Position numbers and translations under genes: made by a program
Shown: positions 57 to 49,300 of the stretch, one piece after another
Position numbering within the stretch: the stretch's first letter is position 1
How the letters are laid out: each line of letters opens with the position of its first letter
Notes under the pieces: generated by a model
Seen by the model: the letters and a program-made list of their open reading frames with translations, nothing else
Database searches by the model: none
What the model was told of the DNA's origin: nothing
Assembly: GCF_058153355.1 (NCBI RefSeq)
Contig: NZ_CM177019.1
Strand: one strand, 5' to 3'
DNA: 64,000 nt

Positions 57-1196
57 TCATCCTTTTTTCCCTCCACTGTTTTTGAGCGTTAGCACCGGAC
101 GCAGTCGCGCGACAGGAATAATTAACCCAGCCTGCACCAGACATTGCACCACGCTTTCAGCCGATTTATAAGCTTGTGGCGCTTCTTCAAAGATGAGTTG
201 TTTATCGCGACAAATTACCCGGCTGCCAAGTTCAGTACGTGAGAGTTGCGTCGCCGTGTATTTCGCTGCCAGACGCCCTTTACACTCGGTGCGCCCCCAT
301 TTACGCCCTGCCCCATGCGCCAGTGAGTGAAGCGTTTTTTCGTTCGCAACAGGTTTAACCAGCCAGGAGTAATCACCGCGTGAACCGGGAATAATCACCA
401 GACCGTTGTCATCCGGCGTAGCCCCTTTACGGTGTAACCATCCTTGTTGATCGCCGATTCGACATGCGCTAACAAAGTTATGCGCCACATCCAGAACCGA
501 ATTTCCGTTGGCCTTAACTTGTTGCATTATGCGCAAAGCGATCAGCTGGCGATTAATACGCGCAAACGCCAGCGCATCATCATGTTCCGCAATATAACTT
601 AGCGCGTCGTCACTGCCTTCCGGCAAACCATGATGCGAAAACGAGGCAATATGCCGCTGTAAAATAGACTGCCCTAAACCACGCGAGCCGCTATGGACCA
701 GCAGTTGCAGATGCTGCGCATCCAGACCTGACAGTGCAAACAGTTCAGCGTCGATAATTTGATCAACTTGTTGCAGTTCTGCGAAGTGGTTTCCGCCACC
801 GATAGAGCCAAGCGCGCAGCGCCACGGATGCTGTGCAAACGCTGACGGCAGGTTTTCCTCCAGCCAGCTTTCTTCAGCAACGTCATCCAGCACAGATAAT
901 CGCTTTTCAAACTTATCGGCGTTGTATTTACGCGCGAGAATATCTGTTTGCCATAGCGCCATGCCGCAGCCGATATCATTGCCGACCAGTGCCGGGTAAA
1001 AACGGCCTACGGAGAAGAACGCTGCGCCAATCGGATAGCCGCGTCCGGGGTGTAAATCTGGCATCCCTACTACGCGTTGCATGTCGGGTAAATTTGCCGA
1101 GGTGTGTAATTGTTGGATCGCTGAACTCTCGATCCACAGGTCATCAGATGCGATGGTAAATACCGCATCGGATAAGGGACGAATATATTTGCCCAT
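57..1196 (-). CDS. RtcB-family RNA ligase paralog (full-length counterpart of the K-12 ykfJ pseudogene; prfH expected just beyond the window start)
   Basis: 379-aa ORF with RtcB-like sequence; sits downstream of yafP on the same strand, as ykfJ-prfH do in K-12. Confidence 0.75.
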   Translation of the reverse strand: MGKYIRPLSDAVFTIASDDLWIESSAIQQLHTSANLPDMQRVVGMPDLHPGRGYPIGAAFFSVGRFYPALVGNDIGCGMALWQTDILARKYNADKFEKRLSVLDDVAEESWLEENLPSAFAQHPWRCALGSIGGGNHFAELQQVDQIIDAELFALSGLDAQHLQLLVHSGSRGLGQSILQRHIASFSHHGLPEGSDDALSYIAEHDDALAFARINRQLIALRIMQQVKANGNSVLDVAHNFVSACRIGDQQGWLHRKGATPDDNGLVIIPGSRGDYSWLVKPVANEKTLHSLAHGAGRKWGRTECKGRLAAKYTATQLSRTELGSRVICRDKQLIFEEAPQAYKSAESVVQCLVQAGLIIPVARLRPVLTLKNSGGKKG

Positions 1197-1513
1197 GTAT
1201 CATTCCATTTATACTCGTCATACTTCAAGTTGCATGTACTGCGACTGCGTTCGTTCACCCCAGTCACTTACTTTAGTAAGCTCCTGGGGATTCACTCGCT
1301 TGTCGCCTTCCTGCAACTCGAATTATTTAGAGTATATAAATATAAAAATCAGGAAATGGCAGACGAATCCAGGGCAAGAAAAAAAGAATTAATCCTGGAA
1401 AGGTCTGCAAAGAGTCATTGATAAAGGATTTTTCATGATTTACCTCCTTGCAGTTTGTGGAATAAGAAAACGCGCACATATTAGGCGGGCGTTATTTTCA
1501 TTGCAAGCTGGAT

Positions 1514-1966
1514 TTAGTGTTGCGGTTTATATCGCATATGAAAATTAGTAAACCACGCTCCCCGGCATTCAACGCGCTGCTGCTTAACTGTCTGAAAACC
1601 ATAACGTTCAAAAAAGGGTTTTGCGGTTATGCTGGCGTCCACCGTAAGTTCGGATTCAGACTTAATCAAAGGTTTTAACAAAGCGCTGGCAACCCCACGG
1701 CGAGTATATTCAGGGTCAACAAATAACATATCGATATAATGCTCAATGCAGGTAATAAAGCCGACCAGTTGTGTATTAATCACCGCAACCCGCACTTGTG
1801 ATTTCGCGAGTTTCTCTTTCCATCGATGTTCATCAATCTGCGCCCAGGCGGCAATTTGTTGTGGTGAATAATGCTGACTGGCGGTCATCGTAACCGCTCT
1901 AATAAAAATAGCGCATAGTTGCTGAAAATCGCCAGGCTGATAGTTCCTTATTTGTATATTATTCAT
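1514..1966 (-). CDS. yafP: GNAT-family N-acetyltransferase YafP
   Basis: 150-aa ORF, 4-bp overlap with dinB stop; recognised as YafP by sequence and synteny. Confidence 0.85.
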
Positions 1967-3018
1967 AATCCCAGCACCAGTTGTCTTTCCATTTGCGGAT
2001 CCAGCAACGTCACATGCAGCCCCACCAGTCGCACACCGCGCCCGCCACGGCGTTCATCCCAGGTTTTACGCGCAGTGGCGATCAAGTCAGCTTTATTCAG
2101 CCGCGGCCAGACGTGTTCCTGGGTGGTTTGCTGAAAATCGTCGAACTTTAATTTCACCCCCTGGCGGGCAATCAGTAAATCAGGTTTTACCTTTGCCAGA
2201 CGACGCTCCAGTTCAGGGTAAAGCCGCTCGATGATCGCTTCACATTCAGACCAGTGATGAATATCTTCCGCCATGGTGCGTTCTACACCGACGGATTTTC
2301 GCAACCTTTCGCTGTTAACGTCGCGCTCGTCAATGCCCTGACTACGCTCCCATAAAATGCGGCCAAATTTGCCAAAGCGTTTAAGCAGAGTTACCAGATC
2401 ACACTTTTGTACATCGCCGCAGGTCCGCAGCCCCATCGCTTCCAGTTTTGCTGCCGAGACTTTGCCGACGCCGGGAATTTTTGCCAGCGGTAAGGTTTGC
2501 AGAAATGCCGGAACTTCTGCCGGCGTAATCACAAACTGACCGTTGGGTTTATTCATGTCTGAGGCGATTTTGGCGAGAAACTTGACCGGCGCAACGCCCG
2601 CAGACGCCGTCAGTTGCAGCTCGTTGAAGATCGTCTGGCGGATTTCCTGAGCGATAAGGGTCGCAGAGCCGTGGCAATGGACACTATCGGTGACGTCGAG
2701 ATAGGCTTCATCCAGTGACAGCGGCTCAATACGCGATGTGTAGCGAGAGAAGATTTCGCGGATATGATTTGACGCTTCTTTGTAGGCGTCAAAGCGCCCT
2801 GGAAGCAAGGTGAGATGCGGACACAGTTTGAGCGCCATGCCGGTTGGCATTGCGCTACGCACGCCAAATTTACGCGCGGGATAATTGGCGGTGCTGATCA
2901 CCCCCCGGCGTTCGCGGCTGCCGCCAATAGCAATAGGGATATCGCGCAGGGCGGGATTGTCGCGCATCTCCACCGCGGCGAAAAAGCAGTCCATATCCAC
3001 ATGAATGATTTTACGCAT
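1963..3018 (-). CDS. dinB: DNA polymerase IV (Y-family translesion polymerase)
   Basis: 351-aa ORF beginning [17 protein letters not shown], characteristic DinB N-terminus. Confidence 0.95.
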
Positions 3019-3088
3019 TGCTCACCTCTCAACACTGGTAAAGTATACAGTGATTTCAGAGTTTGAGAAATGCGTAAAGATTCAGCAT

Positions 3089-4012
3089 TTAACGCGTTCG
3101 CTGCGAAAGCACCTGCTGCTTATCCAGCTTTTTCACCAGCGGCTGCACCACCTTATCCCCATGCTGACCAAAATATTGATACAACGTATCGGACGCGCTT
3201 TTGGTGAGCACCATAATCTCAATGCGCCGGTTACCCGCGCTTTGCGGATTTTTGGCGTCCAGCAGCATCTGGTCCGCCATCGCGCTTACCTGCATCACTT
3301 TATCTTCCGGCATTCCGGCGTCTTCCAGCACCCGACGGGCCGAGAGCGCGCGATCGCCCGAAAGGTTCCAGTTGTTGTAGATATTGCTTTTATAGGCCAT
3401 CGCATCGGTATGCCCGGTAATAATAATTTTGTTGTCGAGCGAGTCGAACACTGGCGCGAGCTCCACCAGCAGCGTTTTAAAGAACGGCATAATCTTCGCG
3501 CTGCCGCGTTCAAACATATTGCGGTTCTGGTCATCTTTAATCAGCACGCGTAATCCCTGCGGAACAATCTCCATCTCCAGATTGGCTTCCATATGCGCAT
3601 CGCGGGCGATGGTGTTGATACTGGTCGCCAGCTCGCCAAGCTCAGTGGCGGACTTCTTCTTCAGTAGCGCCGTTTTCTCGTTGACGTCGCGCGCTTTTTT
3701 CTCCGTCTCTTCCGGCACCGCCACGGTGGCAGGTTTCGGCGGATGCGTCGGGCTGATTTTATTTAACGGCGATAGCCCGCCGCCATTGAAAATCGACTGC
3801 CCGTGCAGCGCGGCGATAATGCTTTCACGCTCGGATTTACTGACGCTGTTGACAATCCACAGCGTCATAAACAGCGCCATCATTGCCAAAGTAAAGTCGG
3901 CGAACGCCACCTTCCACGCCCCGCCGTGATGCCCGGCATGATTCTTTTTGATCTGCCGCCGGACGATGGTCGTTTTTGCCCCTCGCTCGCGGCGGTTGCC
4001 CGTCTTCCTCAT
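3089..4012 (-). CDS. lafU: Lateral flagellar stator protein, MotB-like (OmpA-type peptidoglycan-binding domain)
   Basis: MotB-like ORF with a TM segment and OmpA-like C-terminus; ATG at 4012 is 1 nt from lafT stop (the track ORF extends to 4045); intact, unlike the K-12 remnant. Confidence 0.8.
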   Translation of the reverse strand: MRKTGNRRERGAKTTIVRRQIKKNHAGHHGGAWKVAFADFTLAMMALFMTLWIVNSVSKSERESIIAALHGQSIFNGGGLSPLNKISPTHPPKPATVAVPEETEKKARDVNEKTALLKKKSATELGELATSINTIARDAHMEANLEMEIVPQGLRVLIKDDQNRNMFERGSAKIMPFFKTLLVELAPVFDSLDNKIIITGHTDAMAYKSNIYNNWNLSGDRALSARRVLEDAGMPEDKVMQVSAMADQMLLDAKNPQSAGNRRIEIMVLTKSASDTLYQYFGQHGDKVVQPLVKKLDKQQVLSQRTR

Positions 4013-4014
4013 GC

Positions 4015-4878
4015 TTATTCTTGCTCCAGCATCGCATTCACCCACGCGTCGAGGTTGGCGAAAGTCGGTTTGGACGCCAGATGCAGCAGCTTACGCCCGG
4101 CATCCACCGCCAGCAGCGTCGGTTTGCCGCCCGCCTGCGCCACCAGCACGGTACGCACGCACTCCAGCAGCGAATGTTCCGCCCGCGCCTGCTGTTCCAT
4201 GGCGTTGGCGAGCGGGTCCATCAGGCAGTAGCAGATAAAGACGCCTAAAAACGTTCCCACCAGCGCCGCCGCCACTTTCAGGCCAATCAGGGCGATAGAG
4301 CCATCAATCGACTGCATGGTGATGATGATGCCCAGCACTGCCGCGCAAATGCCAAACCCCGGCATCGCTTCGGCGGTACGTTGCAACGAGCGCGACGGTG
4401 TTAGCAGCGATTCTTCGGCGGTGTCCAGCTCCTGATCGAGAATGCCTTCCAGTTCATGGGCGTCGATTTTGCCCATCGCCATCAGGCGAAAGTTATCGGC
4501 AATAAAAGTCACCAGCCGCTTCTGGGTTAATATCAGCGGGTATTTCTGGAAAATAGTGCTCTCTTCCGGCTGCTCGATATGCTGATCCAGCATACGCAGG
4601 CCGCCGTTTTGCACCATTTCGAGCAACTCATACAGGCACATTAAAAGCTGACGCTGAAACTCCGGCCCGAGCTGTTTTTTACTGATCACGCCTTTAATTT
4701 GATGGGCAATCTCTTTCAGCACATGTTTTGGGTTACCAATAATCATTGCCCCGAAACCTGCGCCTAAAATAATGATCATTTCCGCCGGTTGCCAGATAGC
4801 GACTAATTGTCCACCCGCTTCAAAATATCCGCCAAATACGCAGCCGAGCACCACCAGTAAACCTAATATTTTTTGCAT
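4015..4878 (-). CDS. lafT: Lateral flagellar stator protein, MotA-like
   Basis: 287-aa multi-TM ORF with MotA/TolQ/ExbB-like sequence, directly upstream of the MotB-like gene. Confidence 0.85.
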   Translation of the reverse strand: MQKILGLLVVLGCVFGGYFEAGGQLVAIWQPAEMIIILGAGFGAMIIGNPKHVLKEIAHQIKGVISKKQLGPEFQRQLLMCLYELLEMVQNGGLRMLDQHIEQPEESTIFQKYPLILTQKRLVTFIADNFRLMAMGKIDAHELEGILDQELDTAEESLLTPSRSLQRTAEAMPGFGICAAVLGIIITMQSIDGSIALIGLKVAAALVGTFLGVFICYCLMDPLANAMEQQARAEHSLLECVRTVLVAQAGGKPTLLAVDAGRKLLHLASKPTFANLDAWVNAMLEQE

Positions 4879-9371: not shown

Positions 9372-10881
<1,510 letters not shown>

Positions 10882-10987
10882 CATGCCTGCAATCTGGGAA
10901 ACCGGGGTAGAAAAAAACTTGCAGGCCATAACAGTATCTACGGGTCCGCACCTGTTTTTATGCGTCTGCCCGTTTGTAGGCCCGAAC

Positions 10988-16849: not shown

Positions 16850-17042
16850 GTTGGATCCTTACCGGTAAATCGTGCCGGTTAAAAGCGGCGTGAAGTTGGA
16901 GATTCTTAAGTTCCGTAAACCGGGCGCCAGACACCGGATGCAGCCTGCATACGGGCACAAACATAAAAATATGTGCGAACTCGTAGATACTGTTATGGCC
17001 TGCAAGTTTTTTTCTACCCCGGTTTCCCAGATTGCAGGCATG

Positions 17043-18269
<1,227 letters not shown>

Positions 18270-18307
18270 TGATAAGCGTAGCGCATCAGGCAATCTGGCA
18301 CCAGACA

Positions 18308-40363: not shown

Positions 40364-40663
40364 ATGACGTCATGGATTGATAGTATGATTAAGGTCAGCG
40401 CGCTAGGCTCTCGTCATAGAAAAACATTCGACGATGTAATGACGGAGCCGCCAAAATCTGGAATTAAATGGGATGATGTTGTTGCTCTCATTAAAGCGGT
40501 GGGTGGATCAATAAAAAATAACAACGGCTCCAGACGAAAATTTCAGATTGGAACGACCAAATTCAGCACACATGAGCCGCATCCAAAGAATGTGATGGAT
40601 AAAGGCGCAGTAGCAGGTCTTAAGGAGTGGTTTGTTAACTGTGTAGGGGTAGATTATGAATAA
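40364..40663 (+). CDS. Putative HicA-like toxin
   Basis: Small ORF 8 nt-overlapped with a HicB-like gene; His/Lys pattern GSRRKFQIGTTKFSTHEPHPKN; start may be internal (~40439). Confidence 0.45.
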   Translation: MTSWIDSMIKVSALGSRHRKTFDDVMTEPPKSGIKWDDVVALIKAVGGSIKNNNGSRRKFQIGTTKFSTHEPHPKNVMDKGAVAGLKEWFVNCVGVDYE

Positions 40664-41012
40664 AGCATCGAACATTATCACAATTAAAGGTCAACCAGCC
40701 GCAGTGACATTTGAAGCCGATATCAACGCATTTCGCGGCAAGTTCCTCAATGTAAACGGTTATTGTGACTTTGTAGCCACAAGTATTGAGGCATTATATC
40801 GTGAAGGCGAAAGCGCTCTGGATGAGTGGATGGCGGATTGTGAAGAGGACGGTATTGCCCCTTTTCGTGAAGAAGAAGAGCAAAAACGCCTGACGCTTCG
40901 TGTGCCGCATCACATCGATTCGCGGCTGACCATCGTCGCCAGACAACATTCCATTTCAAAAAACCAGCTCATTATTGATGTCTTAGAACGTGAGTTTTCA
41001 GCCCAGATGTAA
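40656..41012 (+). CDS. Putative HicB-like antitoxin with C-terminal ribbon-helix-helix
   Basis: 118-aa ORF; C-terminal RVPHHIDSRLTIVARQHSISKNQLI resembles an RHH DNA-binding motif. Confidence 0.55.
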   Translation: MNKASNIITIKGQPAAVTFEADINAFRGKFLNVNGYCDFVATSIEALYREGESALDEWMADCEEDGIAPFREEEEQKRLTLRVPHHIDSRLTIVARQHSISKNQLIIDVLEREFSAQM

Positions 41013-41034: not shown

Positions 41035-41784
41035 TTACAAAATCGTCTCTTCCGTCAAAATCCGCCGCGCGCCTAAAAAATGATCCTGCCAGAAAGGTTC
41101 AGCTAACCGACTTACCCGAATGGTTTCCCCGGTGCGCGGCGACTCGATAAACTGACCGTCTCCCAGATACACGCCCATATGGTCGGCAATCTCGCGGCTG
41201 TGAATATGGAAAAACAGCAAATCTCCCCGGCGCAGGTCGTTATTTGCCACAATGGTTGCCCGACGGTAGTGATACATCTCATTGGCCGTGCGCGGGAGTT
41301 TCGCCTCGAGGATCTTGTTGTAGGCATAAAAAACCAACCCGCTACAGTCGAAGCCTTGATCGGATCGCGTGCCGCCCCAGACGTATGGCTTGCCAAGCTG
41401 CTGCTCCAGACGGTGAATCGCCACTTCGGTGATATTATGCAGGTGGTTACTGCTGAGGAAATGATTGTTTTCCGCCAGCGCCTGCCAGCGTCTGTCACTC
41501 GCCTTGAGCGGCGCAGGAAACCATTCTGGATGCTGTTTTATCTGTTCGCGGTTGTGTTGCCGCAGTGCCCTTCTGCTTTCGGCATTGCCTTCCACAATAT
41601 AGCTGGCCTGCTTTTTCAGATGAATTTGGTACTGTTTTAATAAACGCGCACGGTTTTGCATCCGCTGGCGGGCGGCGTAGCTGAAAGAGATATGTGATGC
41701 GGTGGCGCTGGCAAATGAAGAAAACGGCAAGCAAAGCAACAATAATCCCGACAACACAAAAGAGGGAATCGACGGCAAAGACAT
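41035..41784 (-). CDS. yafL: NlpC/P60-family lipoprotein endopeptidase YafL
   Basis: Signal peptide/lipobox and NlpC/P60 catalytic region (GFDCSGLVFYAY...H); start chosen at MSLPSIPSF. Confidence 0.85.
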   Translation of the reverse strand: MSLPSIPSFVLSGLLLLCLPFSSFASATASHISFSYAARQRMQNRARLLKQYQIHLKKQASYIVEGNAESRRALRQHNREQIKQHPEWFPAPLKASDRRWQALAENNHFLSSNHLHNITEVAIHRLEQQLGKPYVWGGTRSDQGFDCSGLVFYAYNKILEAKLPRTANEMYHYRRATIVANNDLRRGDLLFFHIHSREIADHMGVYLGDGQFIESPRTGETIRVSRLAEPFWQDHFLGARRILTEETIL

Positions 41785-41993
41785 TCTCAATAATGGCTGG
41801 TCATGCATTGATGTTGCAGTGTATCCCGGCCCGTACCTGAACAAACTTAATAAACCATTATTATAAAATTAATAAATATATTTCAGTTAATTATGTAAAA
41901 ACATCCGTTTATTAAATTACTCATGGATTGTCGTTGTTGCTCATTTGAGCTACAATTCAAGCTGAATAAATATACAGCACAGGAGATACCCCA

Positions 41994-42254
41994 ATGGCTG
42001 CTAACGCGTTTGTTCGCGCCCGAATCGATGAAGATCTGAAGAATCAGGCGGCGGACGTACTGGCCGGGATGGGGCTGACCATCTCTGACCTGGTTCGCAT
42101 AACCCTCACAAAAGTCGCGCATGAAAAGGCATTGCCGTTTGATTTACGCGAGCCTAATCAATTAACCATTCAATCAATTAAAAACAGCGAAGCTGGCGTT
42201 GATGTTCATAAGGCCAAAGACGCCGATGATTTATTTGATCAATTAGGAATTTAA
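41994..42254 (+). CDS. dinJ: DinJ antitoxin
   Basis: 86-aa ORF MAANAFVRARIDEDLKNQA... Confidence 0.9.
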   Translation: MAANAFVRARIDEDLKNQAADVLAGMGLTISDLVRITLTKVAHEKALPFDLREPNQLTIQSIKNSEAGVDVHKAKDADDLFDQLGI

Positions 42255-42256
42255 AT

Positions 42257-42535
42257 ATGATTCAAAGGGATATTGAATACTCGGGACAATTTTCAAAGGA
42301 TGTAAAACTTGCACAAAAGCGTCATAAGGATATGAATAAATTGAAATATCTTATGACGCTTCTTATCAATAATACTTTACCACTTCCAGCTGTTTATAAA
42401 GACCACCCGCTGCAAGGTTCATGGAAAGGTTATCGCGATGCTCATGTTGAACCGGACTGGATCCTGATTTACAAACTTACCGATAAACTTTTACGATTTG
42501 AGAGAACTGGAACTCACGCGGCGCTATTTGGGTAA
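42257..42535 (+). CDS. yafQ: YafQ toxin (RelE-family mRNA interferase)
   Basis: 92-aa ORF immediately after dinJ. Confidence 0.9.
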   Translation: MIQRDIEYSGQFSKDVKLAQKRHKDMNKLKYLMTLLINNTLPLPAVYKDHPLQGSWKGYRDAHVEPDWILIYKLTDKLLRFERTGTHAALFG

Positions 42536-42690
42536 AGCCCGCTTCCGATGAAATTTGTAAACCCTGCGCCGACAGGCTTGCGTAAAACTCTTTTGGTGAT
42601 AATGTGAGCCTTCCAAATCCAGACTATTCCGATTTGGGATCCATTTTGCCGTCCTGGCGTGTGTAACCGTTTTATCAAGGAATAAGCAGT

Positions 42691-43431
42691 ATGCGTAAAA
42701 TCGCATTAATTCTTGCGATGTTGTTGATCCCGTGCGTTTCGTTTGCCGGTTTGCTGGGCAGCAGTAGCTCGACCACGCCAGTGAGCAAAGAGTATAAGCA
42801 GCAGTTGATGGGCTCCCCTGTCTACATCCAGATCTTCAAGGAAGAGCGCACTCTCGATCTCTACGTCAAAATGGGTGAGCAATATCAACTGCTCGACAGC
42901 TATAAAATCTGTAAATATTCCGGCGGCTTAGGACCTAAACAGCGTCAGGGAGATTTCAAAAGCCCGGAAGGGTTTTATAGCGTCCAGCGTAATCAGTTAA
43001 AACCAGACAGTCGTTATTACAAAGCGATTAATATTGGTTTCCCCAATGCCTATGACCGTGCACATGGTTATGAAGGGAAATACCTGATGATTCACGGCGA
43101 TTGTGTTTCCATCGGCTGCTACGCGATGACCAATCAAGGTATTGATGAGATCTTCCAGTTCGTTACTGGCGCGCTGGTGTTTGGTCAGCCGAGTGTGCAG
43201 GTAAGTATTTATCCTTTCCGCATGACCGACGCCAACATGCAGCGCCATAAATATTCCAACTTTAAGGACTTCTGGGAGCAACTGAAGCCGGGTTACGACT
43301 ACTTTGAGCAAACCCGTAAGCCACCAACCGTTTCTGTGGTCAATGGCCGTTACGTCGTCAGCAAACCGTTGAGCCATGAAGTGGTGCAGCCACAGCTGGC
43401 ATCAAACTACACGCTCCCCGAGGCAAAATAA
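42691..43431 (+). CDS. yafK: L,D-transpeptidase-family protein YafK
   Basis: 246-aa ORF with signal peptide and YkuD/LDT-like catalytic region (HGDCVSIGC). Confidence 0.85.
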
Positions 43432-44169
43432 GCGCCATTCGCCTGGCATAATCTTTTGCCAGGTTTCATTGCCCGTCAGCGGCTGTGTCGCAATCACCGT
43501 GACCACATCATTCGGTGTGGTCTGCGAGCTGAAGTCGATTTCCACATCCTGATCCAGCAACGTTGCCACGCCAAACGGCGCGCGGCGGGTGATCCAGTGC
43601 AGATTGGTCGAGCAATACGCCATTACATAGCGTCCGTCCGAAAGTAGCATGTTGAAAACGCCCTTCTGCCGCAGTTCATCCGCCAGTGAGGCGATATATT
43701 TAAACACTGCCGCCATGTTGCCTGGTGTGCGCGGGTAACGCTGTGTTAATTTATGCAGCAGCCAGCAAAAGGCTTTTTCGCTGTCGGTTTCACCTACCGG
43801 GCGGAAGTTGCCGGTTTCCAGTGACTTGTACCCCGTCAGTTGCCCGTTATGGGCATAAGTCCAGTTGCGTCCCCATAACTCGCGGGTAAACGGATGAGTA
43901 TTTTCCAGTGCCACCTCGCCCCGATTCGCCTGGCGAATATGAGCAATTACCGAGCAGGATTTGATTGGATAGTCCTGGACCAGTTTGGCGATAGGGGAAT
44001 TAAAGCTGGGTTGCGGATCTTTAAATGTGCGACAGCCTTTACCTTCGTAAAAGGTAATGCCCCAGCCATCTTTATGTGGCCCGGTTCCACCACCACGCTG
44101 CACCAGACCGGTGAAACTAAAGCAGATATCGGTAGGGACGTTAGCGCTCATCCCGAGCAATTCGCACAT
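43402..44169 (-). CDS. yafJ: Class II glutamine amidotransferase-like protein YafJ
   Basis: Start [12 protein letters not shown] (N-terminal Cys nucleophile); the track ORF extends to 44184. Confidence 0.85.
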
Positions 44170-44234
44170 CGGTAACCTCCACAACAGCGAGGGCGCATGG
44201 CCCCCGGCGAAGATTGATTTAAGAATTTTCAGGT

Positions 44235-44370
44235 CGGATGCGGCGTGAACGCATTATTCGGCCTACGGTTCGGGTACAGATTTGTAGGCATGATAAGACG
44301 CGTCAGCGTCGCATCAGGCATCAGCGCACAAGTGCCGGATGCGGCGTAAACGCCTTATCCAGCCTACGCC
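44235..44370. repeat. REP/BIME cluster
   Basis: Several cggatgcggcg...gcctac units in alternating orientation. Confidence 0.85.
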
Positions 44371-44374
44371 AGAC

Positions 44375-44953
44375 TTACTTAACCATCTCTTTTTCAATTA
44401 ACTGGATCAGGATATGGATCACTTTAATGTGAATCTCCTGAATGCGGTCGGCATAACCAAAGTGCGGAACGCGAATTTCGATATCCGCTGTGCCAGCCAT
44501 TTTGCCGCCGTCTTTACCCGTCAGGGTGATCACTTTCATCCCCTTCTCACGCGCCGCTGCGATCGCTTTGATCACGTTTGCAGAGTTACCGGAGGTGGAA
44601 ATCCCCAGCAGTACATCGCCTTCGCGACCTACCGCTTCAACGTAGCGGGAGAAAATATCATTGAAACCGAAATCATTACCGACGCAGGAAATATGACTAA
44701 CGTCAGAAATGGCAATCGCCGGATAGCCCGGACGGTTTTCACGGTAGCGCCCCGTCAACTCTTCGGCAAAGTGCATGGCGTCGCAATGGGAACCGCCATT
44801 ACCGCAGGAAAGCACCTTACCACCGGCTTTAAAGCTATCTGCTAACAGGACCGCCGCGCGCTGAATGGCGTGAATATTGGCGTCATCTTTTAAAAAGTTA
44901 GCCAGCGTTTCCGCCGCTTCGTTCAGTTCGTTACGAATAAGATCCTGGTACAT
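44375..44953 (-). CDS. gmhA: Sedoheptulose-7-phosphate isomerase
   Basis: 192-aa ORF from [17 protein letters not shown] domain; the track ORF extends upstream. Confidence 0.9.
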
Positions 44954-45192
44954 GAGGATATCCTTCAGCATAAATGTAATAGACAAAATGCAGTGTACCG
45001 GATACCGCCAAAAGCGAGAAGTACGGGCAGGTGCGATGACCAGGACTTTTTGACCTGAAGTGCGGATAAAAACAGCAACAATGTGAGCTTTGTTGTAATT
45101 ATATTGTAAACACATTGCTAAATGTTTTTACATCCACTACAACCATATCATCACAAGTGGTCAGACCTCCTACAAGTAAGGGGCTTTTCGTT

Positions 45193-47637
45193 ATGATGAT
45201 TTTGAGTATTCTCGCTACGGTTGTCCTGCTCGGCGCGTTGTTCTATCACCGCGTGAGCTTATTTATCAGCAGTCTGATTTTGCTCGCCTGGACAGCCGCC
45301 CTCGGCGTCGCTGGTCTGTGGTCGGCGTGGGTACTGGTGCCTCTGGCCATTATCCTCGTACCGTTTAACTTTGCGCCTATGCGTAAGTCGATGATTTCTG
45401 CGCCGGTATTTCGTGGATTCCGTAAGGTGATGCCACCGATGTCACGCACTGAAAAAGAAGCGATTGATGCAGGCACTACCTGGTGGGAAGGCGACTTGTT
45501 CCAGGGTAAGCCGGACTGGAAAAAGCTGCATAACTATCCGCAGCCGCGCCTGACCGCAGAAGAGCAAGCGTTTCTCGACGGCCCGGTAGAAGAAGCCTGC
45601 CGGATGGCGAATGATTTCCAGATTACTCATGAGCTGGCTGATTTGCCGCCGGAGCTGTGGGCGTACCTTAAAGAGCATCGTTTCTTCGCGATGATCATCA
45701 AAAAAGAGTACGGCGGGCTGGAGTTCTCGGCTTATGCCCAATCTCGTGTGCTGCAAAAACTCTCCGGCGTGAGCGGGATCCTGGCGATTACCGTCGGCGT
45801 GCCGAACTCATTAGGCCCGGGCGAGTTGCTGCAACATTACGGCACTGACGAGCAGAAAAATCACTATCTGCCGCGTCTGGCGCGTGGTCAGGAGATCCCT
45901 TGCTTTGCACTGACCAGCCCGGAAGCGGGTTCCGATGCGGGCGCGATTCCGGATACCGGGATTGTCTGCATGGGCGAGTGGCAGGGCCAGCAGGTGCTGG
46001 GGATGCGACTGACCTGGAACAAACGCTACATTACGCTCGCGCCAATTGCTACCGTGCTTGGGCTGGCGTTTAAACTCTCCGACCCGGAAAAACTGCTGGG
46101 TGGTGCAGAAGATTTAGGTATTACCTGTGCACTTATCCCGACCACCACGCCAGGCGTGGAAATTGGTCGTCGCCACTTTCCGCTGAACGTACCGTTCCAG
46201 AACGGACCGACGCGCGGCAAAGATGTCTTCGTACCGATCGACTACATTATCGGCGGACCAAAAATGGCCGGGCAAGGCTGGCGGATGCTGGTGGAGTGTC
46301 TCTCCGTGGGGCGCGGCATCACCCTACCTTCCAACTCAACCGGCGGCGTGAAGTCGGTGGCGCTGGCAACGGGCGCGTATGCGCACATTCGCCGTCAGTT
46401 CAAAATCTCTATCGGTAAGATGGAAGGGATTGAAGAGCCGCTGGCGCGTATTGCCGGTAATGCCTACGTGATGGATGCTGCGGCATCGCTGATTACCTAC
46501 GGCATTATGCTCGGTGAAAAACCTGCCGTGCTGTCGGCTATCGTTAAGTATCACTGTACCCACCGTGGGCAGCAGTCGATTATTGATGCGATGGATATCA
46601 CCGGGGGTAAAGGCATTATGCTCGGTCAGAGCAACTTCCTGGCACGAGCTTACCAGGGCGCACCGATTGCCATCACCGTTGAAGGGGCCAACATTCTGAC
46701 CCGCAGCATGATGATCTTCGGTCAGGGAGCGATACGTTGCCATCCGTACGTGCTGGAAGAGATGGAAGCGGCGAAGAACAATGACGTTAACGCGTTCGAT
46801 AAACTGCTATTCAAACATATCGGCCACGTCGGCAGTAACAAAGTTCGCAGCTTCTGGCTGGGCCTGACGCGCGGTTTAACCAGCAGCACACCAACCGGCG
46901 ATGCCACTAAACGCTACTATCAGCATCTTAACCGCCTGAGCGCCAACCTCGCCCTGCTTTCTGATGTCTCGATGGCGGTGCTGGGTGGCAGCCTGAAACG
47001 TCGCGAACGCATCTCGGCACGTCTGGGTGATATTTTAAGTCAGCTTTACCTCGCCTCTGCCGTTCTGAAGCGTTATGACGACGAAGGCCGTAATGAAGCC
47101 GACCTGCCGCTGGTGCATTGGGGCGTACAGGATGCGCTGTATCAGGCTGAACAGGCAATGGACGATTTACTGCAAAACTTCCCGAACCGCGTGGTTGCCG
47201 GGCTGCTGAATGTGGTGATCTTCCCGACCGGACGCCATTATCTGGCACCGTCTGACAAACTGGATCATAAAGTGGCGAAGATTTTACAAGTGCCTAACGC
47301 CACCCGTTCACGTATTGGTCGCGGTCAGTACCTGACGCCGAGCGAGCATAACCCGGTTGGTTTACTGGAAGAGGCGCTGGTGGATGTGATTGCCGCCGAT
47401 CCGATTCATCAGCGGATCTGTAAAGATCTGGGTAAAAACCTGCCATTTACCCGTCTGGATGAACTGGCGCACAACGCGCTGGCAAAGGGGCTGATTGATA
47501 AAGATGAAGCCGCTATTCTGGTGAAAGCTGAAGAGAGTCGTCTGCGCAGTATTAACGTTGATGACTTTGATCCGGAAGAGCTGGCGACGAAGCCGGTAAA
47601 GTTGCCGGAGAAAGTGCGGAAAGTTGAAGCCGCATAA
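45193..47637 (+). CDS. fadE: Acyl-CoA dehydrogenase FadE
   Basis: 814-aa ORF from [20 protein letters not shown]; the track ORF begins at 45115. Confidence 0.9.
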
Positions 47638-47645
47638 TTGAATAA

Positions 47646-47670
47646 CGGAGCCGAAAGGCTCCGTTTCTTT
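47646..47670 (+). terminator. Rho-independent terminator between convergent fadE and ivy
   Basis: Hairpin cggagcc-gaaa-ggctccg followed by TTTCTTT. Confidence 0.7.
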
Positions 47671-47679
47671 ATCCGCTAA

Positions 47680-48153
47680 TTATTTAAAATTAAAGCCATC
47701 CGGATGATTTTCCAGGCTGCCGGTCAACGCCGCGAATAGCACCGTTTTACCATCAATCGAAAGCGCATCATTCACATTCAACCAGGTGAGTTTCTCTTGC
47801 GAGGTTTTCTCATCAATGGTCGAGAACAGCCCCGTCATCTGATTAGATTTCTCGGACCACATCACAGCGATACGTTGCGAGCCACAGTCATGCGGTTTGC
47901 ACGCGCTCATCACCTGATACGTCTCATCTCCCAATGTCACGGTTTGTGCGGGGGTATAAGTACCGCCTTTCATCACCCAGGCAGGCAGCTTATGCCCTTG
48001 CACCATCTGACTAAACGCAGCTTTGGTGGTTTCGCCCTTTGCAAGGCTGCTAATGGTTAAATCATCCTGCGCCATTGCACTGGTGGCGATGACCAGTGCG
48101 GCGACTGTCGTTATTGCCTTAAACATCATTCCTCCCGAGCTTATCCTGCCCAT
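47680..48153 (-). CDS. ivy: Inhibitor of vertebrate C-type lysozyme
   Basis: 157-aa ORF with signal peptide and conserved CKPHDCG loop. Confidence 0.9.
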   Translation of the reverse strand: MGRISSGGMMFKAITTVAALVIATSAMAQDDLTISSLAKGETTKAAFSQMVQGHKLPAWVMKGGTYTPAQTVTLGDETYQVMSACKPHDCGSQRIAVMWSEKSNQMTGLFSTIDEKTSQEKLTWLNVNDALSIDGKTVLFAALTGSLENHPDGFNFK

Positions 48154-48306
48154 GTTATTAACCTCCTAAAGCCTGGCGATAACACGATAATTTGCAAATC
48201 AGATATTTCCAATATCAGCATTTGTTATCAATTTATTCTGCGCTAAGGCAACTGCCTGATAAGGTGTTAGAGTTATAAAACCCTTCGCATAAAGGAGTTG
48301 TACACC

Positions 48307-49077
48307 GTGCCTGGTTTGAAGATTACGCTTTTACAGCAACCACTGGTGTGGATGGATGGTCCTGCCAACCTGCGTCATTTTGATCGTCAACTGGAAGGTA
48401 TTACCGGACGCGATGTGATCGTTCTACCGGAGATGTTTACCAGCGGCTTTGCCATGGAAGCGGCAGCTTCGTCGCTAGCACAAGATGACGTAGTGAACTG
48501 GATGACAGCCAAAGCGCAGCAGTGCAATGCGCTGATTGCAGGCAGTGTTGCATTACAAACAGAGTCTGGTTCGGTTAACCGCTTTTTGCTGGTTGAGCCG
48601 GGCGGCACGGTACATTTTTATGATAAGCGTCATCTGTTCCGCATGGCAGATGAGCATCTGCATTATAAAGCGGGCAATGCGCGAGTGATTGTGGAATGGC
48701 GCGGCTGGCGTATTTTGCCGCTGGTGTGCTACGACTTACGTTTTCCGGTGTGGTCGCGCAATCTCAACGATTATGACCTCGCCATCTACGTCGCCAACTG
48801 GCCTGCCCCACGCTCTCTGCACTGGCAGGCATTGTTGACAGCCCGCGCGATTGAGAATCAGGCGTATGTGGCGGGATGCAATCGCGTCGGCAGCGATGGC
48901 AATGGCTGCCATTATCGCGGTGACAGCCGGGTGATTAATCCACAGGGCGAGATTATCGCTACTGCCGACGCGCATCAGGCAACGCGCATTGATGCGGAGC
49001 TGTCGATGGCGGTGTTACGGGAATATAGAGAAAAGTTTCCAGCATGGCAGGATGCGGATGAGTTTAGGTTGTGGTGA
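48307..49077 (+). CDS. yafV: Nitrilase-superfamily omega-amidase YafV
   Basis: CN-hydrolase sequence; GTG at 48307 is 9 nt after the AAAGGAG RBS (the track ORF starts at TTG 48298). Confidence 0.85.
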
Positions 49078-49079
49078 GT

Positions 49080-49300
49080 GGGTGTTGTGTTTAGGACCGG
49101 GGAGAGTCGGGGTAAGACTACGAAAGCCCGCTCTCCTGCGACCACTTTTATCATAGGAGTGTGGAAGCGCTTTTCCATCAATTGCGATGACGTCTTTATC
49201 ATTTGATGAATGGCAATCTCGCATCCAGTTAATAAAGCATTCGTGAAATTATACTGAACGGATACAAGACATAACTCTAATTATGGTGCCGTGAACAGGA
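49080..49300 (-). mobile_element. ISAs1-family (H-repeat) transposase remnant, yafF-like
   Basis: Degenerate fragments ([40 protein letters not shown]) homologous to the second remnant at 50800-51340. Confidence 0.65.

Follow-up and report, generated by a model that had tools for sequence, protein, structure and literature searches.

A two-gene dinB-yafP operon without yafN-yafO, very probably one state of a long-standing presence/absence polymorphism in Escherichia

Introduction

In Escherichia coli K-12, dinB is the first gene of a four-gene operon, dinB-yafN-yafO-yafP, described by McKenzie et al. 2003 according to the accounts of that work given in PMC3105422 and PMC2814082. The two central genes, yafN and yafO (hereafter yafNO), have two sources of transcription, the SOS promoter of dinB and a YafN-autoregulated promoter of their own just upstream of yafN (Christensen-Dalsgaard et al. 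2010, PMC2814082), and induction by DNA damage and co-transcription are known from K-12 (PMC2814082) as well as from strain CFT073 (Gutierrez et al., PMC3105422). The latter strain was chosen for experiments because of its two-gene operon, in which yafP follows dinB with an ATGA overlap, an arrangement that Gutierrez et al. 2011 (PMC3105422) reported in 40-50% of E. coli strains and whose junction has been PCR-sequenced in ECOR strains (PMC3105422). Two views of its origin are available. Gutierrez et al. 2011 (PMC3105422) argued for a four-gene ancestor and at least three independent deletions, since E. fergusonii has four genes, and Fraikin et al. 2020 (PMC7167474) described dinB-yafP without yafNO as an undisturbed bicistronic operon and also stated the view that the cassette was inserted. 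A similar case discussed in PMC7167474 is relA-mazG with or without mazEF, which differs in its genes and position and likewise houses a strain-variable type II toxin-antitoxin pair inside an otherwise undisturbed bicistronic operon.

Here we analyse the dinB locus in a stretch of 64,000 bases (the window), for which a first-pass annotation had proposed that yafP directly follows dinB, that the two genes overlap by 4 bp and that the yafN-yafO pair of the K-12 operon is absent.

Results

The dinB and yafP genes and their junction

The ORF listing and the raw sequence show a 351-aa and a 150-aa open reading frame on the minus strand, corresponding to dinB and yafP and joined by one copy of a short motif:

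1963..3018, minus strand: dinB, DNA polymerase IV, 351 aa, first gene of the operon (tblastn, Pfam, residues)
1514..1966, minus strand: yafP, GNAT-family N-acetyltransferase, predicted, 150 aa, second and last gene of the operon (tblastn, Pfam)
1963..1969, minus strand: junction, a single ATTATGA in which dinB ends (TGA) and yafP begins (ATG) (blastn matches to either flank of the K-12 cassette run through 1963-1969)

When the K-12 proteins were compared with the window by tblastn, both frames matched over their full length, in agreement with the direct succession of the two genes announced by the first-pass annotation. DinB (99.7% identity, E = 0) differs from that of K-12 by a single residue, M210T. 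It matches all four polymerase IV domains in Pfam (IMS, 4.9e-51; IMS_HHH; IMS_HHH_1; and IMS_C, 1.8e-14) and retains D8, D103 and E104 (catalytic) together with the C-terminal beta-clamp motif QLVLGL; the IMS catalytic core, the little-finger domain, the catalytic residues and the clamp motif identify it as a Y-family DNA polymerase IV. YafP (94% identity, 9 substitutions, E = 5.5e-97) matches the Pfam families Acetyltransf_10, Acetyltransf_7 and Acetyltransf_1, the first of them with 4.2e-20 over residues 31-144, and is a full-length GNAT protein predicted to act as an N-acetyltransferase. At the DNA level, identity to K-12 is 93.7% for dinB and 94.7% for yafP.

The bases 1963-1966 are common to both frames and read ATGA on the minus strand, so that the 4-bp overlap of the yafP start with the dinB stop can be seen directly in the raw sequence (the overlap stretch on this strand is GGATTATGAATAAT). 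The dinB gene ends with ...CTG GGA TTA TGA, and yafP opens with ATG AAT AAT..., beginning one base earlier than the stop codon. A weak GGUG lies eight nucleotides upstream of the yafP start, and no strong Shine-Dalgarno sequence precedes it.

Absence of the yafN-yafO cassette

As reference operon we used the region of K-12 W3110, whose annotation as dinB-yafN-yafO-yafP confirms the gene order that the first-pass annotation had given for K-12. When this cassette and its flanks were compared with the window by blastn, the two flanks alone matched, and the operon of the window corresponds to that of K-12 without the cassette, with 1,505 bp against 2,264 bp, a difference of exactly 759 bp. The best tblastn match of K-12 YafN and YafO over the 64,000 bases had E = 0.25, and a search of the whole window for diverged or relocated copies (tblastn with an E cutoff of 10, blastn with a word size of 7) returned chance matches only. 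Re-inspection found no yafN-yafO between dinB and yafP, and adjacent antitoxin and toxin genes of the YafN-YafO type II system were found nowhere within the 64 kb. What the window contains is the two-gene variant with all its marks, namely adjacency on the same strand, the ATGA overlap and no yafN or yafO in the 64-kb window. The proposal that this strain has the dinB operon without its toxin-antitoxin cassette is supported by the junction, the gene identities and the tblastn and blastn results alike.

The limits of the cassette coincide with a short repeat. Along the sense strand of the operon, ATTATGA occurs in K-12 at positions 1050 (the end of dinB), 1089 (39 nt further, in the dinB-yafN spacer) and 1809 (the start of yafP), and in the window at 1050 alone. 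The 752-bp yafNO cassette of K-12 is bracketed on both sides by this 7-bp sequence, of which the window has exactly one copy. The difference of 759 bp is accounted for exactly by the cassette (752 bp) and one repeat copy; therefore, the same sequence results whether the cassette was cleanly deleted between the outer repeats or was never inserted. Primary absence and clean secondary loss in the lineage of the window cannot be told apart from this sequence, because both routes lead to the same junction.

Control region and 3' end of the operon

Upstream of dinB, the window carries the elements of an SOS-controlled gene:

3033..3052, minus strand: LexA (SOS) box CACTGTATACTTTACCAGTG, overlapping the -10 of the dinB promoter (CTG-N10-CAG read from the sequence; alignment)
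3042..3069, minus strand: promoter-like site of dinB, with -35 TTCTCA, a 16-nt spacer and -10 TATACT (consensus scan, 9/12 matches)
3019..3032, minus strand: dinB 5' leader with the Shine-Dalgarno sequence GAGAGGTGAGCA before the ATG (identical to K-12 in the alignment)

The LexA box is identical in the window, K-12, O157:H7 and Combat2C1 (a B2-like strain), and in E. whittamii a single base of the 20-mer is changed. With its CTG-N10-CAG arrangement over the promoter, this predicted LexA site would place the operon in the SOS (LexA) regulon. The promoter differs from that of K-12 by one C-to-T change in the spacer, just downstream of the -35 and outside both hexamers, and the Shine-Dalgarno region is conserved across the alignment except for a single change in O157:H7. 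Repression by LexA and induction through SOS and RpoS are established for the dinB promoter of K-12. By analogy with the K-12 literature the same site should function as the dinB promoter in the window, and the matching control region suggests that it is likewise repressed by LexA and induced through SOS and RpoS.

Beyond yafP, the consensus scan flagged no intrinsic terminator. The fold of 1440-1520 (minus strand) consists of a modest hairpin followed by UUUUCUUAUU; with a z-score of just -1.4 and a silent consensus scan, we do not claim a terminator downstream of yafP.

Lineage and genomic neighbourhood

Over the core genes yafL to yafV (8.1 kb; 41036-49136), the window is 96.4-96.5% identical to typical E. 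coli, and the closest of 5,426 complete E. coli genomes reach 98.0% and 97.6% (2020CK-00188 and EC42405). Compared with the same 5,426 genomes, the dinB region (1200-3300) has a typical identity of 94.8%, and the best values across the dinB region and the core genes are 98.0-98.1%. Because the identities of the core genes, dinB and Flag-2 (see below) to E. coli are low, the window can be assigned, on these sequence comparisons, to a divergent Escherichia lineage filed under E. coli, possibly a group resembling cryptic clade I.

A complete-looking Flag-2 (lateral flagella) cluster adjoins dinB (3089-40280). It includes a full-length lafU/motB-like gene (3089-4045), motA-like, sigma factor, fliD-like and flgK/L-like genes, fliF-I and flhA/B, and is ~94% identical to the Flag-2 of those E. 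coli strains that have the cluster; in K-12 a lafU-flhA remnant only is present. Two IS621-family (IS110-like) copies, at 9648-10981 and 16943-18276, are 99% identical, inverted in orientation and each code for a 326-aa transposase. Between them lie 5,961 bp of Flag-2 that contain the genes for the lateral flagellin, for a regulator and for hook-associated proteins, and the two copies could mediate an inversion or have disrupted operons. On the other side, downstream of yafP, lies an intact gene for a 379-aa RtcB-family RNA ligase (57-1196, minus strand); rtcB and the adjacent prfH are fragments in K-12 and intact in the related loci of many strains. A hicA/hicB-like toxin-antitoxin pair is found between flhA and yafL, where K-12 has rayT, and the dinJ-yafQ pair is also present, the two type II pairs being located at 40364-41012 and 41994-42535. 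The window is without yafNO, yet keeps these neighbouring toxin-antitoxin modules.

When set beside the two-gene operon of CFT073, UTI89 and half of the ECOR strains (PMC3105422; PMC7167474), the operon of the window has the same genes in the same order, the same ATGA overlap and the same LexA-controlled promoter, and its place on the chromosome is also the same, with lafU on one side and rtcB-prfH/pepD on the other. It differs in that its alleles are unusually diverged in DNA and that the adjoining Flag-2 cluster is intact, not deleted. With the four-gene operon of K-12 it has in common the promoter, the LexA box, the leader, a DinB one residue apart and yafP as last gene, whereas it lacks the 752-bp cassette, the internal YafN-autoregulated promoter and one ATTATGA copy, yafP coming after dinB and not after yafO.

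Distribution of the two states in E. coli

The two-gene dinB-yafP arrangement is already known, common and ordinary. The direct junction is present in 2,569 of the 5,426 complete RefSeq E. coli genomes (~47%) and the K-12 yafNO cassette in 2,847 of them, almost always as a single copy (median of 1 and maximum of 2 places per genome). Cassette carriers and direct junctions add up to 5,416 of the 5,426 genomes and are thus essentially complementary. The same genome search placed 8 of 2,861 yafNO occurrences on records typed as plasmids. At least 24 NCBI assemblies encode the exact YafP of the window; in each of them the gene sits immediately behind dinB with the four-base overlap, and in one of them, GCA_015332025.1, dinB and yafP are both 100% identical to those of the window. 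The two-gene operon is a known polymorphism and no peculiarity of the strain studied here. One E. coli strain with alleles close to those of the window, 2013C-4282, has the two-gene operon with a frameshifted dinB.

Outgroups and age of the cassette

YafP homologs outside E. coli, with inspection of their genomic context, served as outgroups. In E. marmotae, dinB overlaps yafP by ATGA; in Citrobacter amalonaticus the first yafP ATG lies 5 nt after the dinB stop, the start being ambiguous as that chosen by the gene caller overlaps dinB; and in Kluyvera sichuanensis the first yafP ATG is two bases past the dinB stop. The synteny pepD-gpt-frsA-crl is conserved in all three, and none of them has yafN or yafO between these genes or in the inspected context. 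Because yafP comes immediately after dinB in E. marmotae, C. amalonaticus and Kluyvera, it is more likely that K-12 represents the derived state, carrying an insertion, and yafNO being 'absent' from the window should not be taken to mean 'lost relative to K-12'. In dinB and yafP trees rooted on Citrobacter, E. marmotae (two genes) is basal, followed by E. whittamii (four genes) and by the deep-branching clade of the window, in which all sampled members have two genes; the haplotype sample behind these trees is small (about 25 loci, 7 of them with the cassette) and recombination blurs the branching.

The synonymous divergence of yafO among seven four-gene operons is 0.02-0.09; the GC content in these operons is 54% in dinB and 42-44% in yafN, yafO and yafP. 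For pairs of distant lineages (E. coli against E. whittamii, SCPM-O-B-8794 and Combat2C1), dS is 0.19-0.33 in dinB and 0.15-0.28 in yafP, the flanks of close strains, such as K-12 and O157:H7, having lower values than these. The cassette, and yafO especially, carries four to eight times less synonymous divergence than its flanks dinB and yafP, and this also holds between E. coli and E. whittamii, although seven cassette sequences were compared and part of the deficit in dS may stem from composition or constraint. When synonymous codon differences in cassette and flanks were compared by Fisher tests, six pairs gave P values from 0.017 down to 1e-9. Diversity falls to a trough centred on yafO, with gradual shoulders. 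A synonymous divergence so far below that of its flanks shows that the cassette is younger than dinB and yafP, and the pattern suggests that it has spread, or has recently been exchanged, between lineages by recombination.

Switching between states

Within E. coli the two-gene state is polyphyletic, and several pairs of two- and four-gene strains have a common SNP haplotype right up to the junction. Such matches link the four-gene strain Combat2C1 with the two-gene strains WP5-S18, AVS0662 and SCU-171, O157:H7 (four genes) with RUT3575 (two), JCH8249 (four) with B1 strains (two), and LR-60 (four) with EC31 (two). The occurrence of both states on common flanking haplotypes therefore points to repeated interconversion within E. 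coli; precise deletions at the 7-bp repeats, homologous recombination of short tracts through dinB and yafP, or both may account for it.

A three-gene form, dinB-yafN-yafP, exists in Escherichia sp. E1V33 (L004 5625-6000) and E. coli GF43 (L030 1497-1872). Here, yafO alone has been removed between TTAT microhomologies, which leaves an orphan antitoxin and a yafO remnant of 10 codons (MRVFKTKLIL, or MRVFKTKLTL in GF43) that ends in a TGA overlapping the yafP ATG. This junction is identical on two backgrounds that differ by 4.4%. Partial cassettes were counted in about 16 of the 2,847 cassette-bearing genomes. In E. coli MINF_8D, an IS1 is inserted in yafO.

Discussion

How the junction of the window arose can be read in different ways. 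The lineage may once have had four genes and lost yafNO by slippage or illegitimate recombination between ATTATGA copies, as proposed for all two-gene strains by Gutierrez et al. 2011 (PMC3105422). Several observations fit such a loss: direct repeats of seven bp bracket the cassette, two-gene haplotypes nest among four-gene ones with flanks identical up to the junction, an independent deletion at TTAT microhomologies removed yafO in E1V33 and GF43, and four genes are present in E. whittamii and, by report (PMC3105422), in E. fergusonii. However, all sampled members of the deep-branching clade of the window have two genes, the cassette is missing from the outgroup genera and from E. marmotae, and the window itself lends loss no support, a deleted and a never-inserted sequence being identical; we regard loss in this lineage as plausible but somewhat less than evenly probable. 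Alternatively, the ancestral dinB-yafP was retained and never invaded, the cassette having entered another Escherichia lineage and spread from there by recombination. To this we give an even chance. It agrees with the cassette-free adjacency in Kluyvera, Citrobacter and E. marmotae, with a cassette much younger than its flanks at synonymous sites and a trough at yafO, with a clade that is uniformly two-gene and basal in the dinB tree, and with the insertion view stated in PMC7167474; against it, a precise deletion produces the same sequence, and the small set of cassettes tempers the argument from dS. That the two-gene state is ancestral at all has to be set against the four genes of E. fergusonii, from which Gutierrez et al. 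(PMC3105422) argued that four genes are ancestral. By comparison, an assembly collapse or a misread sequence at the junction has a practically negligible probability: we found no support for it, and the same junction recurs: 2,569 complete genomes have it, as do no fewer than 24 independent assemblies with identical YafP and the PCR-sequenced ECOR strains.

In the history that we favour, the two-gene operon is ancestral, and one or a few insertions of yafNO were followed by its exchange and loss. In its most complete form, it would reverse the published polarity: dinB-yafP would predate the genus, yafNO would have been inserted at the ATGA junction, duplicating ATTATGA, and would later have spread among Escherichia species by recombination, at a time more recent than the divergence of its flanks, and the lineage of the window would never have been invaded. 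We hold this complete version tentatively, its probability falling just short of even. We have, by contrast, high confidence in the broader reading that the window carries a two-gene, LexA-controlled dinB operon with one SOS promoter, that this is one state of a long-standing presence/absence polymorphism of Escherichia which has been interconverted repeatedly, and that the cassette-free state is the older one. What we add is the evidence from outgroups, the finding that the cassette is young and the intermediate form with three genes; these refine the evolutionary detail and leave the biology unchanged.

In such an operon, the one SOS promoter with its LexA box (3033-3052) would give rise to a single transcript for DNA polymerase IV and YafP. 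At the ATGA overlap, ribosomes that end dinB would most likely restart on yafP by termination-reinitiation coupling; the overlap, the weak GGUG and the lack of a strong Shine-Dalgarno sequence suggest that yafP translation depends on ribosomes terminating dinB. In the absence of the cassette, yafP would be transcribed from the dinB promoter alone, the second promoter, which lies within the K-12 cassette and is autoregulated by YafN, being out of its reach, and neither the ribosome-dependent mRNA interferase YafO nor its antitoxin YafN would be made upon DNA damage. We infer both the translational coupling and the sole reliance of yafP on the dinB promoter from this gene arrangement. A functional link between YafP and Pol IV in the handling of nitroaromatic adducts has been described (Gutierrez et al. 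2011, PMC3105422) and would explain why dinB and yafP stay together.

For annotation, these results mean that the K-12 operon is not to be taken as the reference: yafNO is missing from about half of E. coli and from the closest outgroups. The SOS polymerase and YafP remain linked while the toxin-antitoxin pair is dispensable, and the outgroups together with the low dS of the cassette favour yafNO as a selfish insertion that has moved between lineages over yafNO as an ancestral member of the operon that was lost several times.
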